A DNA stretch of 62,417 bases, the filler included, from Malassezia furfur (taxonomy: Eukaryota): assembly GCA_052055015.1 (NCBI GenBank). It is 2 parts of 2 records of this genome, joined end to end, with 100 filler letters (N's around TTAATTAATTAA, not from the genome) between each part and the next. Parts side by side here need not be neighbours in the genome. Positions count along the whole stretch, not along the records: positions 1 to 31,378 come from JBQJIT010000094.1; positions 31,479 to 62,417 come from JBQJIT010000095.1. One strand, given 5' to 3'. The notes under the pieces were generated by a model. It worked only from the letters and a program-made list of their open reading frames with translations, was not told where the DNA came from and searched no databases. Made by a program: the position numbers and the translations under genes. Shown piece after piece: positions 492-61,537 of the stretch. Position 1 is the first letter of the stretch. Every line of letters begins with the position of its first letter.

Positions 492-1969
492 ATGTCGCAA
501 AGTCTGCTTGCGCACCTGCAGCACGGATTGATTCGCATTGCGACCGTGCCGCCGCGTGTGCTTACGAGCCCGGCATCGCAGCCGCGGCGCGCGAGTGTCG
601 CGCTGATCCTGCGCGTGCGTCCCGCGCCCGAGGACGAGTCGTGGCTGCGGGCGAAATGGCGCTACGGCGAGGTGAAGGAGGAGGACGCGCACTTTTTCCC
701 GTCGATGACGCGTGCGTACGAGTGGCTGACGCAGAACAAGACGCAAACGGCACGCTCAGCACCGAGGCGCGCCTGCGCCACTTCTTCTCGCTGCCGTGGG
801 TCCAGCGCGGGACGGCGGAGCTGCTGTTCATCAAGCGCGCCGTGCGTGAGAACGACCAGTGGTCGTCGCACGTCGCGTTCCCCGGCGGGCGCCGCGACGA
901 GGAGGACGAGAATGGGCTGTACACGGCGATGCGCGAGACCTGGGAAGAGGTCGGCATCGACCTCGCCGAGAAAGAGTTCCTCCAGGTGGGCCATCTGGAG
1001 GACCGCGAGATCACGAGCAGCCTTGGCAAGCGCCTGCTGATGATCCTGAGCCCGTATGGTATGTGCACCACTCACACAGTCTTCCTCCAGCTCTCGCCCT
1101 TCTCCGAGCGCCCGCACCTGCAGGCGAGCGAGGTCGAGTCGCTGCAGTGGGTGCCGCTCCAGCGGCTCTTTACGCCGAAGCCCGACTGGGGCTCGATCCA
1201 CATCGACTTTGCGCGGCACGCGCCGCGCAACTCGGTGCTGCGTGTGTTGCTCTCCGTGCTGATCGGCAAGATGTCGTTCCGCACCGTGCAGCTGCCGAAT
1301 CGGCCGGACGCCGTCGCGAAGGGCGACAGCGACGCCGAGGCGCTGGTGCCGCGCGCGACGCTGCCGGACAAGGCGGAGGAGGCGGGAGAGACGCTCAGCG
1401 ACGACAACGGCGACACCACGCACATCCTCACCGAGTCCGAAAAGGACTACCTCGAGCAATGCACGCCGCACCTGCAGCTCTGGGGCCTGACGCTGGGCAT
1501 GACGCTCGACTTTCTCACGCACATGGGGACGTACCAGATGCAGCCCCTGTCGGCGACTGAGCAGGACAAGAGCATGCTCGAGCGCATTTTGTCCAACACG
1601 CCGTCGAGCTACCTGCTCGGCGCGCCGACGGAGCTGGCGCTGGCGAAGAAGACCCCCAGCGTGGTGGAGGTGTTCCCCCATTTCAGCTACCCCGACGTCA
1701 ACTTTTGGATCTGGGTGTTTGGCTGGCGCTACCGCGTGATCCTGCGTGGGTGGCAGCGGAGCATCGGCACCGAGATGGAGCGCCGCGCGCACTGGTCGGG
1801 CCTGGCGCTCGCCGCGTTCTAGTACGTATTCCTTCTGACCTCCAGCTCCTCGGTCCGCCGCGCCCTCGTAGTCACGCTCGTGCTCCGCGCGCTGGGTCTC
1901 GTGAGTCTCACGGGCCTCGGGGCGTGGCTCGCCGTGCGGCGCTTGCGTGCGCGCCGCACCCTTGCGTGA
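492..1969 (+). CDS. Nudix hydrolase (CoA-pyrophosphatase-like) with C-terminal hydrophobic segment
   Basis: [29 protein letters not shown], Nudix box [18 protein letters not shown]. Introns at 712-734, 1059-1079 and about 1822-1845. Confidence 0.85.
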
Positions 1970-2020
1970 GGCGCGTGTTTGTAGTCTACATCATGCAATG
2001 TCCTACTGTCCCATGCACTT

Positions 2021-2289
2021 CTACTTGTTCAACTCGGCCGTGCGCTTGGCGAGCTCTTCCTTGGCTGGCGTCAGCGGTGTGTGCGCATACGTACAGGCCG
2101 GCTGCCCGAGCTGGCTCGCGGCGTCCTTATCTGGGATTTGGATGCCGGGGCCGGTCGGCACGCCCGTGCCCATCTGGCGGTCGCCGCCCACGTTTGGGTC
2201 CGAGGCCGGATCGTTGCCTGCGTAAGTCGCTATAACCTACTCTTGGCCGGGTGCGGCTGGATGGAAAACTGCTCGTTCGGATCGCTCAT
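2021..2289 (-). CDS. 71-aa hypothetical microprotein (3 exons)
   Basis: Two canonical short introns (GTAGGT..CTTACGCAG; GTACGT..CTGACGCCAG) join MSDPNEQFSIQPHPAKSNDP...PASKEELAKRTAELNK* in frame. Confidence 0.75.
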
Positions 2290-2450
2290 GGCCGCGGGGA
2301 TGCCGCCCGGTGGCGCCGCGCACGGGCTACCGCACACCCCACGCGGGCCCACGTGGCTTACTCCGCACCGCGCGTCGGTGGTCCCCGCATTCCGGGTCTC
2401 GCGGCGCTGCCGCGCAGTGTGGTATGGGGCGGTGACAACGCACTTCCACC

Positions 2451-59467: not shown

Positions 59468-59476
59468 AGGCGGGCG

Positions 59477-60916
59477 CTACGGGGTCTGCGTCGCAAGGTG
59501 CTTGCGGGCCTGGTCGACGTAGGCGACGGCGTCCGGCACCGTGTCAGGGCGTACAGCGCCTGGGGTATGCTGCGTGCGCTCGGCGTGCTCGTAGCAGTCG
59601 AGGACGCGGGTATACTGCCCGTGCTTGTCGTAGAATGCGAGAATGTCGGTGAGCATCTCGGGTGTCGCGATCGGTACCGGGTGCCATGTCGAGGGCACCG
59701 AATAGTGGATCGCCTTGGGCGTGTGGGCAAACGTCACACCGCAGTAGGTGCCGAGCAAGGCGCTGATCGTCTGGACGGCGTCGCGGGGCGACCCGATCGC
59801 GAGCGTCCACACGAGCGTCTTGACCGCCGTGGCATCGAGCAGCGACGCAGTGTGCGGCTCGGTGCGGGTCGTGGCGAGCAGGTCAAACTGCCACCGTGCC
59901 CAAATGTCGCGGATCGCCGCCTGCTTGGCTGCGAGCGGCATGCGGCACCGCCCAAGATCGCGCACGAGCGCCGTGTAGGTCGGCGCGGTGGCGAACAGGC
60001 TGCGCGGTAGGTGCGGCGTGCTTTGCGTCGTGCGGCGGCCGGGGTACGGATCGGGGCACACGTCGTTCCACACCCCCAGCGCGTCGTCTGGGCGGCCGAG
60101 GGCGCAGAGCAACGAGATGTACGCGCTGTATGCCGCAACAATGGCATGCGGGTCCTTGTGCAGCTCGTAGAGGACGCGCGACTTGCTGGCCGCGACCGAT
60201 GGGCGCCCGCGTGCGCCCGTGGCGTCTTCGGTGGGCGTGCCGAGCCAGGCGATGTCGTCGGTGGGCGTGGCGGGCGCCGCTTGCGCCGCCTGGTGGTGGA
60301 GCTGCTCGAGACCCGCGTAGAGCTTCGGAAGATGCACGAGCCACGCCGAAGAGGTCGCGACGTCGATGCGGTGGGTGCGCACGGCGGCGGCCAGCGCGGC
60401 AAAGTAGCCGGCGTACGTGCGGGCGGTTGGGCGCACCTGCGCGCGTTTCATCTCGCAGTACGTGCGCCACGCGGCACTCGGCATACCGGCGCGCACCGCG
60501 AGATCAATCACCTGGTTCCATGCGGCGGCCGCAAGCTGTGGGTGGATGTGCTCGGCGGTGGTGTCGTGCGTGCGGATGGTGCGGGCCAAGCGGCGCCATT
60601 CGTCCATGCGCGTCTGGAGGCGCGCATGGGCCTCGTGGAACGCGCGTTCCGGAACGCCGCCTCGCGCGAGCTCGTCCACCTCGTGCGAGGTGCAGAACAG
60701 GTGTTCGCGCAGGCTGGGGGTCGGCGGCCGCTTGGACGCGACGCGGATGTCGGTGCGAAAATCGCCGCCGCGGCGCCGCTGCATGTTGCGAAAATTGACG
60801 ACGTTGCGTGGCGGCGCGGCATGCTTAGCGGCGCGAGGCTTGGGGGGTGGTGGGGCGCGTGGCGCGCGCCCTGGGCCCGTAGCGAAGCGGCGTACCGCGA
60901 CGCGGGGCAGCAGCAT
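59477..60916 (-). CDS. mitochondrial pentatricopeptide-repeat (PPR) protein
   Basis: Arg-rich presequence; PPR-like units WNQVIDLAVRAG..AWRTYCEMKRAQVRPTARTY and AYSAYISLLCALGRPDDA. Confidence 0.75.
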   Translation of the reverse strand: MLLPRVAVRRFATGPGRAPRAPPPPKPRAAKHAAPPRNVVNFRNMQRRRGGDFRTDIRVASKRPPTPSLREHLFCTSHEVDELARGGVPERAFHEAHARLQTRMDEWRRLARTIRTHDTTAEHIHPQLAAAAWNQVIDLAVRAGMPSAAWRTYCEMKRAQVRPTARTYAGYFAALAAAVRTHRIDVATSSAWLVHLPKLYAGLEQLHHQAAQAAPATPTDDIAWLGTPTEDATGARGRPSVAASKSRVLYELHKDPHAIVAAYSAYISLLCALGRPDDALGVWNDVCPDPYPGRRTTQSTPHLPRSLFATAPTYTALVRDLGRCRMPLAAKQAAIRDIWARWQFDLLATTRTEPHTASLLDATAVKTLVWTLAIGSPRDAVQTISALLGTYCGVTFAHTPKAIHYSVPSTWHPVPIATPEMLTDILAFYDKHGQYTRVLDCYEHAERTQHTPGAVRPDTVPDAVAYVDQARKHLATQTP

Positions 60917-61017
60917 GGGAACGAAGCTGGTGCGGCGGCGAAGCGCGGCGCTGACTAATGGGCGGCCCGGCGTTTGCGGCGTCCCCCGAGCGACCATTGT
61001 GGTTTGCGCAGCGAGGG

Positions 61018-61537
61018 ATGGCGACGCATCGTGAGGCGAACAACCCCAGCTTTGCCTACGTCGAGCCCGCGGCGTGGCCGAAGGATGTGCCCAAGGTCGA
61101 AGAGGTCGGCACGACGTCTGCGCCGCTGAAGTCGATCGCCTTTTTCCTGGGCCAGTTCTGCAAGGACTACAACGACGACTTTATGCTGTGCAAGAGCGAG
61201 GACCGCAACCCCGAGCACTGCCTGAAGGAGGGCCGAAGAGTGACGCGCTGTGCGCAGGACCTGTACGTTGTTGCCGCCCCACTGACCTCAGCATCAAGCG
61301 GATGAACGAAAATTGTCAAAAGGAGTGGGATGCGCATTGGCAGTGCCTCGAGATGAACAACCAGGAGCTGTTTGCGTGCCGGAAACAGGAGCGCCCGCTG
61401 AACAAGTGTGTGCTCGACCAGCTGGTGCGTTTTATGTCCTCACACAGCAACTCGCGAAAAAGATTCCCGGCGCGCCGGCAGGCAAGCCGCAGATCTTTGA
61501 GCAGGAGAAGCAGGTCTACGGGCGGCTCCAGAAGTAG
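61018..61537 (+). CDS. complex I subunit NDUFA8 (20.8 kDa)
   Basis: VPKVEEVG.TSAPL.S.AFF.G..C.DYNDDFMLCK.E...HCLKEGRRVTRCA, CX9C pairs. Two introns. Confidence 0.93.

Follow-up and report, generated by a model that had tools for sequence, protein, structure and literature searches.

We analysed a stretch of 62,417 nucleotides (nt) from Malassezia furfur (GenBank assembly GCA_052055015.1; two contig parts joined end to end with filler, referred to here as the window) for the very small spliceosomal introns that interrupt its genes. The window is densely coding with a GC content of 62%, and the 33 gene models built in it contain 64 introns with GT...AG ends (Table 1). Fifty-seven of these introns are 20-26 nt long and the longest modelled is 35 nt; one intron has 20 nt, eight have 21, 12 have 22, 19 have 23, seven have 24, five have 25, five have 26 and seven have 27-35. 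The scoring of gene models favoured 20-26 nt, with an upper limit of 60 nt, and the claim about length therefore rests on the unfiltered tests given below; longer introns also occur, such as one of 46 nt at 7599-7644. The geometry of these introns is a hard lower limit, with the branch adenine at position 16 or later and a tail beyond it, and not a fixed spacing. A sequence-only reading of the window had listed seven tiny GT...AG segments as introns; all seven are present with the lengths that it gave and with these ends, two of them (30896-30915 and 39490-39510) on the minus strand, which it had left unstated.

Table 1. Genes of the window and their small introns (lengths in nt in parentheses; branch A, position of the branch adenine counted from the donor)
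Gene	Strand	Span	Introns	Remarks
U1C (U1 small nuclear ribonucleoprotein protein)	-	1..413, past window edge	364-394 (31), 242-264 (23)	PF06220 match
Nudix-domain	+	492-1969	712-734 (23), 1059-1079 (21), 1822-1845 (24)	First: branch A at 18, removal gives a 469-amino-acid frame, retention a frameshift; second: branch A at 16, in frame, stop-free, support from motif
EI24-family	-	5478..5986	5966-5986 (21), 5478-5502 (25)	
Mis14-like	+	6514..7012	6514-6536 (23), 6622-6643 (22), 6893-6915 (23), 6990-7012 (23)	
Glycerol-3-phosphate dehydrogenase	+	7450-8727	7599-7644 (46), 7922-7949 (28), 8461-8491 (31)	Second: unusual donor GTTCGT
MIX23	-	8873..9403	9381-9403 (23), 8961-8988 (28), 8873-8899 (27)	
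HIT-domain	+	9826..10072	9826-9848 (23), 10047-10072 (26)	
Hep_59-domain	+	11013..11434	11013-11035 (23), 11285-11305 (21), 11413-11434 (22)	
WD40	-		13570-13590 (21)	Holds in-frame stop
URA5 (orotate phosphoribosyltransferase)	+		14129-14150 (22)	Junction GPAYK/GIP
Ribosomal L16	+	15739..15857	15739-15761 (23), 15833-15857 (25)	
OST3/OST6	+	16816..17450	16816-16837 (22), 17428-17450 (23)	
Nop53	-		18264-18286 (23)	
HIG1-domain	-		20441-20465 (25), 20060-20094 (35)	
FAD-oxidase	-		21217-21238 (22), 21099-21122 (24), 20934-20959 (26)	
Ser/Thr phosphatase	+		22729-22750 (22), 23329-23350 (22)	First follows a 20-nt first exon; retention gives in-frame stop
VHS/GAT	+	23810..24240	23810-23832 (23), 23986-24008 (23), 24032-24056 (25), 24218-24240 (23)	
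CDP-alcohol phosphatidyltransferase	+	25449..25723	25449-25474 (26), 25701-25723 (23)	
RRM	-		30896-30915 (20), 30813-30835 (23)	First: shortest found, branch A at 16, 3' distance 5
CBP6	+		33635-33658 (24)	In frame; Pfam 2-62 then 68-89, colinear only if removed
2-Hydroxyacid dehydrogenase	-	34575..34821	34796-34821 (26), 34575-34596 (22)	
No Pfam family	+		35403-35423 (21)	In frame, support from motif
PTH2-family	+		36816-36838 (23)	Donor GTAGGC
eIF3m	+	37917..38945	37917-37940 (24), 38913-38945 (33)	Both in frame, support from motif
ARPC3	-		39490-39510 (21)	In frame, branch A at 16; Pfam P21-Arc 1-35 then 39-173, colinear only if removed
AAA ATPase	-		41511-41536 (26)	
Deaminase	+		42224-42245 (22)	Pfam 2-47 then 52-101
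Arginase	-		42842-42864 (23)	
Cytochrome b5-like	+	44224..44453	44224-44247 (24), 44429-44453 (25)	
Beta-helix glycoside hydrolase	-	47776..49504	49483-49504 (22), 48381-48401 (21), 48233-48254 (22), 47776-47796 (21)	
FtsJ-like	+	55531..55641	55531-55554 (24), 55620-55641 (22)	
Methyltransferase	-		56334-56357 (24)	In frame, support from motif
CHCH-domain	+	61263..61447	61263-61291 (29), 61425-61447 (23)	

Some further details of the window were recorded. The first coding exon of the U1C gene (minus strand) is 19 nt, and in the VHS/GAT gene a 23-nt exon (24009-24031) lies between introns of 23 and 25 nt, leaving no room for two spliceosomes at once. Another longer intron, of about 49 nt, lies upstream of the 46-nt one in the glycerol-3-phosphate dehydrogenase gene. 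A tRNA gene at 14649-14728 (+) measures 80 nt against a model of 71 positions, which suggests a very short anticodon-loop intron.

Evidence for splicing of the tiny segments

A motif scan (donor, branch, acceptor) of the window returned 80 candidates of 18-30 nt, nested ones counted, with a peak at 21-23 nt. The same scan on 50 dinucleotide shuffles gave 10.2 ± 3.0 candidates (maximum 20), an eight-fold excess in the real sequence that bears out, together with the gene models, the proposal that tiny introns are pervasive. It had also been proposed that removal of the segments restores protein motifs, and this held for URA5, RRM_1 and P21-Arc; for 1059-1079 the support comes from the splice motif. 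The spliced URA5 form, GPAYKGIP, is the reading of intronless bacterial orotate phosphoribosyltransferases and of named Malassezia homologs. When 87 exon pieces were scanned with Pfam, the same family was found on both exons at 10 junctions, eight of which were colinear within 2 positions, including those across the in-frame 21-nt ARPC3, in-frame 24-nt CBP6 and 20-nt RRM introns; at the last of these, RRM_1 positions 1-33 matched one exon and 35-54 the next. The remaining two junctions (Nop53 and the phosphatase) were 6 positions off, yet retention would shift the frame. The spliced U1C product matches the U1C proteins of named Malassezia.

For a test of reading frame, a codon model trained on the window was applied to eight other contigs, and candidates were kept if the nearest neighbour was more than 75 nt away and the frame was clear to the left and to the right. 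Among those with lengths that are not multiples of three, 93 of 106 fitted splicing, 10 fitted retention and 3 neither (p = 4e-31 against an expectation of 1/3).

The assembly (G000; 13.68 Mb across 1856 contigs) allowed a comparison between gene copies. Five of its contig pairs align at 84-88% identity over 157.5 kb, which indicates that the genome carries two subgenomes, 87-88% alike, as would fit hybrid ancestry in the M. furfur group. At the URA5 exon, identity is 99% to a protein that carries the name Malassezia brasiliensis and 81-89% to those of four other named Malassezia. A search of the assembly with 22001-42000 of the window found no subgenome copy (22001-31378 lacks a second one), and the test was therefore run on the five other contig pairs; the window introns comparable between subgenomes are those of U1C, which measure 32 and 23 nt in the other copy. 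The queried portion of the second part, 31479-42000, had no identical match in G000. From 245 loose candidates of 15-80 nt in the five pairs, all signals were conserved in 100/106 at 21-26 nt, 36/69 at 47-80 nt and 7/17 at 15-19 nt, with none of 20 nt. In the 121 kept introns of 20-45 nt, spacer identity between subgenomes was 65%, compared with 90% in the flanks; length differed in 23 of them, in 20 by non-multiples of three, compared with a single gap in the 7260 flank columns.

Such segments could in principle be motifs that arose by chance, indels of the assembly or insertions in coding sequence. About 10 motif matches per window are expected by chance and some in-frame cases have no homolog support, but this explanation is contradicted by the eight-fold excess, the frame test, the homolog colinearity and the subgenome indels. 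We consider it extremely improbable and rejected it for the class, though not for single in-frame cases; the segments are almost certainly real spliceosomal introns.

Introns with lengths that are multiples of three (3n) made up 53 of 146, and stops were present in 19/53 of these and in 22/93 of the others (p = 0.13, not significant); Paramecium has a deficit of stop-free 3n introns. The absence of a 3n deficit here would suit introns that are real yet poorly spliced, with much of the mRNA retaining them, as in microsporidia: retention is extensive in Encephalitozoon cuniculi (PMC6009652), and a median efficiency of about 25% is quoted for the group (PMC13644364). In M. sympodialis, however, RNA sequencing (RNA-seq) backs 5271 of 5350 curated introns and 829 peptides span junctions (PMC5389616), and essential genes of the genome studied here hold up to four frame-breaking introns, which makes widespread retention very unlikely.

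Splice signals and the limit at position 16

The introns consist of a GT(A/G)NG(T/C) donor, a free spacer, an RCTNAY branch, usually one further base, and CAG, with no pyrimidine tract. The consensus put forward in the sequence-only reading was correct in the form GT(A/G)(C/T/G)GT-N6+-CTNA(C/T)-N-CAG, but its claim of a fixed branch geometry was too strong. The branch adenine lies 6 nt from the 3' end in 47 of the 64 window introns, 7 nt in 12, and 5, 8 or 9 nt in five. Counted from the donor, the adenine is at position 16-18 in 42/64; the others trail off as far as 29, and 16 is the lowest position seen. In 242 copies from the subgenome pairs the 3' distance was 6 nt in 160, 7 in 50 and 8-11 in 32.

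This limit was also evident without length filtering. Among 785 GTA(C/T/G)GT donors in 492,417 bases, a CTNAY adenine occurred 5 times at position 15, 59 times at 16 and 59 times at 17, followed from position 18 onward by 42, 29, 25, 12, 14 and 9. The background was 75 over the 25 positions 36-60, or about 3 each, and one shuffle gave 0-15 after scaling. Anchoring in reverse on 168 branch-acceptor motifs, we found a donor placing the adenine at 16, 17 and 18 in 31, 31 and 23 cases and at 15 in none; 7 fell at 11-14 and 33 motifs had no donor. All seven conserved cases with the adenine below 16 could be accounted for: five were nested donors, one was due to a second branch motif and one was a weak-donor match. 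On the basis of the reverse anchoring and the re-reading of these cases, introns shorter than 20 nt or with a branch adenine below 16 were rejected. The sole 20-nt intron keeps its adenine at 16 and spares its base on the 3' side, indicating that the limit sits on the donor-to-branch loop.

Donors in the 242 copies were GTACGT (110), GTATGT (42), GTAGGT (24), GTACGC (23), GTGCGT (10) and GTAAGT (8), and the branch motifs included CTGAC (85), CTCAC (55), CTTAC (33) and CTAAC (31). A set of 340 motif-defined introns, which forces the adenine to 16 or later and was excluded from the evidence for the limit, had a GC content of 56% and a branch purine at −4 in 80%. Donor position +4 was C in 63%, T in 22%, G in 11% and A in 4%, a weak fit to canonical U1, and the exon side of the donor carried little consensus (A at −2 in 27%, G at −1 in 49%). 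Position +4 has been linked to METTL16 (PMC10581693). GC donors and other donor hexamers showed no excess with the adenine at 16-21 in the 492 kb; one relative (P0003) reads as having a GC donor, despite this result.

Spliceosome components and the route of assembly

Human extracts require about 50 nt between donor and branch site and splicing is abolished at 46 nt; in the human B complex 17, 14 and about 21 nt add up to about 52 nt between the two (PMC6692369). In the introns studied here the branch adenine lies 15 nt from G1; the donor takes up 6 nt and the branch helix 4-5 nt, which leaves about 5 nt. Set against a 15-nm gap that takes about 21 nt, this places the steric problem mainly on the B stage, where the clash would be worse than during simultaneous binding of U1 and U2. 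The sequence-only reading had seen a steric difficulty in that simultaneous binding; the difficulty agrees with the human distance data, but its main site appears to be the B complex.

The modified assembly route put forward in the sequence-only reading is still a proposal. The best explanation, which we somewhat favour, takes them for ordinary introns of the U2 type that have been reduced to the minimum that the catalytic core can handle, with normal chemistry and with the two sites engaged in turn. Two-step lariat chemistry would then proceed with a loop of 16-23 nt, and the 16-nt limit would be the sum of some 6 nt bound by U6, 5 nt bound by U2 and 5 nt bridging them, as in the activated spliceosome. 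More tentatively, given the roughly 52 nt that the human B complex requires, donor and branch may not be held by small nuclear RNAs (snRNAs) simultaneously in the standard A/pre-B/B arrangement. U1 might bind the donor weakly and briefly, with U2AF65 and presumably also SF1 marking the branch and the AG; U1 might depart as U2 loads, the tri-snRNP might dock on U2, and U6 might capture the donor late, as U2 shifts to its activated position.

The components found bear on this. Our inventory covered the U1, U2, U5 and U6 snRNAs, U1-70K, U1C and U2AF65. The U2 gene was found once (124 bits, with GUAGUA, to which the RCTNAY branch is suited), and two U6 genes (with ACAGAGA) and two U5 genes are present, all conventional. 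U1-70K occurs in two full-length, ordinary copies of 363 and 354 amino acids with four tiny introns each. U1C also has two copies, one of them inside the window; its zinc finger is near the fungal consensus and equals the consensus for 110 comparison matches except for S26C, common to four named Malassezia, and R28K. U2AF65 lies on two small contigs, with a score below the family cut-off and the gene cut by a contig start, and we presume its identity from its RRM and UHM motifs; a loss of U2AF65, which the missing pyrimidine tract might have suggested, was rejected on finding this gene. A second zf-U1 protein is present, which we take to be the B-specific FBP21/WBP4. The losses or truncations of spliceosomal parts that the sequence-only reading had asked about were thus not seen in this partial inventory, in which U1-70K, U1C, U2AF65, U2, U5 and U6 are present and ordinary and the U1 snRNA was not found.

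A canonical order of assembly could instead be served by a compacted machine, in which SF3a/SF3b, RBM22/Cwc2, B-specific or branching factors, shortened or lost in this lineage, let U1 or U6 and U2 jointly hold a 16-nt loop. Stentor has smaller proteins and altered Cwc25/Isy1 ends (PMC9505925), and the proteins that touch the loop lie outside our inventory. Full and conventional U1-70K, U1C zinc finger and U2AF65, the second zf-U1 protein, and the 15-nm gap that wants about 21 nt where about 5 are free argue against compaction, which we regard as possible but doubtful.

Several searches for the U1 snRNA in G000 were made. RF00003 gave no match at E<=1, with 41 of 173 first-look candidates scored. 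ATACTTACCTG was absent from both strands. ATACNTACCTG had 29 matches with 17 G, 10 C and 2 A at the variable base, all rejected as opposite-strand donors or coding sequence. A pattern of U1 5' end plus loop I matched 9 places, none like U1; the pair L035/L038 among them was rejected as a donor in a protein gene. The TATA motif of the U2 and U5 genes, used as a lead, returned only their three sites, and TATA plus ACNTAC gave 30 matches, none like U1. Rfam scans of 49 matched loci (20/29, 9/9 and 20/30) found no U1, a stem-loop and Sm-site script gave 0 U1 matches in 938 kb including overlaps, and patterns in which position 5 was left free brought up no U1 either in this fragmented assembly. These misses mean little because there are 1856 contigs, scoring reached 41/173 candidates, U2 itself turned up a single time, and the queried portion of the window's second part has no identical match in G000.

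The same results would suit a U1 snRNA that is remodelled, for example with a 5' end pairing with GUACGU, or unused, the branch being engaged first and U6 picking the donor by distance. The missing RF00003 match, the absence of ATACTTACCTG and the predominance of G at the variable base of ATACNTACCTG agree with this, as does the +4 order C>T>G>A, which G at U1 position 5 would favour; a precedent exists in Entamoeba (10.1101/2022.06.08.495308). However, both U1-70K and U1C have two intact copies, the 29, 9, 3 and 30 pattern matches included nothing resembling U1 in an assembly whose fragmentation weakens any miss, and Thecamonas prefers +4C and retains a standard U1 (10.1101/2022.06.08.495308). 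We consider a remodelled or unused U1 quite unlikely. That the whole intron complement of Malassezia, thousands of GC-rich introns with full signals, bypasses the double-bound A and B complexes, with the branch read first, U1 remodelled or dispensable, and U6 capturing a GUACGU donor at least 15 nt away at a distance set by the activated core, also seems unlikely.

Certain points weigh against the preferred explanation of shrunken U2-type introns engaged site by site. The evidence is all at the level of DNA, from which the order of assembly cannot be read. The parts found are conventional, which fits any route. In Stentor, introns of 15-16 nt are removed through a loop of 10 nt (PMC9505925), and 16 is therefore not a universal catalytic limit. 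The donor logo was conditioned on G at +5 and T or C at +6, the signal identity in the 121 introns kept between subgenomes is partly owed to the selection of that set, and in-frame, stop-free introns without Pfam support have the motif as their sole evidence.

The searches brought up other features of G000. The U2 gene (L001) and both U5 genes (L084 and L085) share TATATA(T/A)ACCCGC about 30-45 nt upstream, and TATAWAWACCCG occurs in only three places, upstream of these genes; their likely Sm sites read TTTTTCG rather than TTTTTG. A weak C/D small nucleolar RNA (snoRNA) match (Afu_335, E 0.72; L012 1531-1618, +) directly follows a GTACGT donor of a gene with multiple RRMs and may mark a longer intron kept as a snoRNA host. 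One contig (L119, G000:C86) carries a mitochondrial large rRNA gene interrupted by two introns of group I.

Age of the introns and comparison with other lineages

The introns would seem to be old, many of them ancestral, and shrunken, because the same positions hold introns, some of them larger, elsewhere. The URA5 intron measures 21, 22, 23 and 27 nt in four relatives whose gene calls read through introns (P0001, P0003, P0004 and P0005), and its position is where a longer read-through begins in each of six proteins that are more distant. For the second U1C intron, P0133 and P0134 give readings of 48 and 51 nt versus 23 nt here, and the ARPC3 position has a 40-nt intron in another locus (L143) versus 21 nt here. 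A scan of seven metagenomic ARPC3 loci (36.8 kb; branch pattern CTRAY only) gave no motif match under 31 nt. Another contig with an ARPC3 relative (L142, fungal, 63% GC) has motif-defined introns mostly of 31-54 nt, an intermediate size class.

That Malassezia has short introns was already partly known as a summary statistic, as the sequence-only reading had noted. The curated mean in M. sympodialis is 30 bp, over 5350 introns in 4493 genes with 99% RNA-seq support, and lengths are plotted in Fig. S8 of that paper, which may already show the mode (PMC5389616). Annotation of M. restricta set the minimum intron at 20 and 15 (PMC6473144), and a review mentions 'very short introns' (PMC7426719). 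The parts of these sources drawn on give no modal length, branch geometry, donor consensus or spliceosome analysis. The lengths are far below those of other fungi, as had been claimed: Cryptococcus neoformans averages 63 bp in a paper that, in the parts drawn on, treats M. sympodialis only as intron-poor and whose supplement may give Malassezia intron lengths (PMC8476143). The sub-30-nt exceptions given in a 2026 paper are ciliates, microsporidia, dicyemids and myxobolids, with Malassezia unnamed in the parts drawn on (PMC13644364), and the main texts of PMC11649378 and 10.1101/283549 do not mention Malassezia. Our literature search, which reached few subscription journals, found no paper on Malassezia branch geometry, its limit, donor or spliceosome mechanism. 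The one-base-sharp limit, the GC-rich form with full signals and the GUACGU donor appear undescribed.

The size range is that of Stentor (15-16 nt), Paramecium (20-34 nt), the Bigelowiella nucleomorph (18-21 nt) and myxobolids and Dicyema (medians 22-27 nt) (PMC9505925, PMC6009652, PMC13644364), with GT-AG ends and a modal length below 30 nt (21-23 here), again as claimed. The branch adenine 6 nt from the 3' end and conventional U2 and U6 motifs are shared with Stentor (PMC9505925). Unlike those lineages, which have reduced GTa..AG signals and are AU-rich in Stentor and the nucleomorph, the introns here have a 6-nt donor and a 6-nt branch motif at 56% GC. Encephalitozoon cuniculi is also of fungal lineage with short introns and a clear branch motif (CTAAYTT, PMC2483917), but its introns number 37, retention is common and the spliceosome is reduced (PMC6009652), whereas here genes have about one intron each and U1 and U2AF proteins are present. 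Yarrowia lipolytica likewise lacks a pyrimidine tract and has 2 nt between branch motif and AG, and Trichomonas and Giardia also fix the branch-to-AG spacing (PMC2483917); Yarrowia, however, has long introns and a near-invariant ACTAAC, whereas the branch here is degenerate and the donor side is also at its limit. A donor departing from the U1-optimal GTAAGT and a U1 snRNA missed by the standard model recall Entamoeba and Cyanidioschyzon merolae. Entamoeba has a co-evolved U1 and a strongly diverged U1C and in C. merolae the missing subcomplex is U1, whereas U1C and U1-70K are conventional here and no altered U1 was found.

Public Malassezia-like protein models (P0124, P0131 and P0027) start inside, read through or over-skip tiny introns, a matter for annotation. 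Introns of 15-25 nt raise the question of how a spliceosome of several megadaltons can remove them, and the known carriers (ciliates, nucleomorphs, microsporidia and myxozoans) are difficult experimental subjects or carry splice signals that are too weak for mapping. The branch limit at base 16 is about a third of the human requirement. Malassezia is culturable, with tools for gene replacement and CRISPR (PMC7426719), and its plain donor and branch signals and one-base-sharp limit are open to deletion probing, making it a test case for the splicing of tiny introns.

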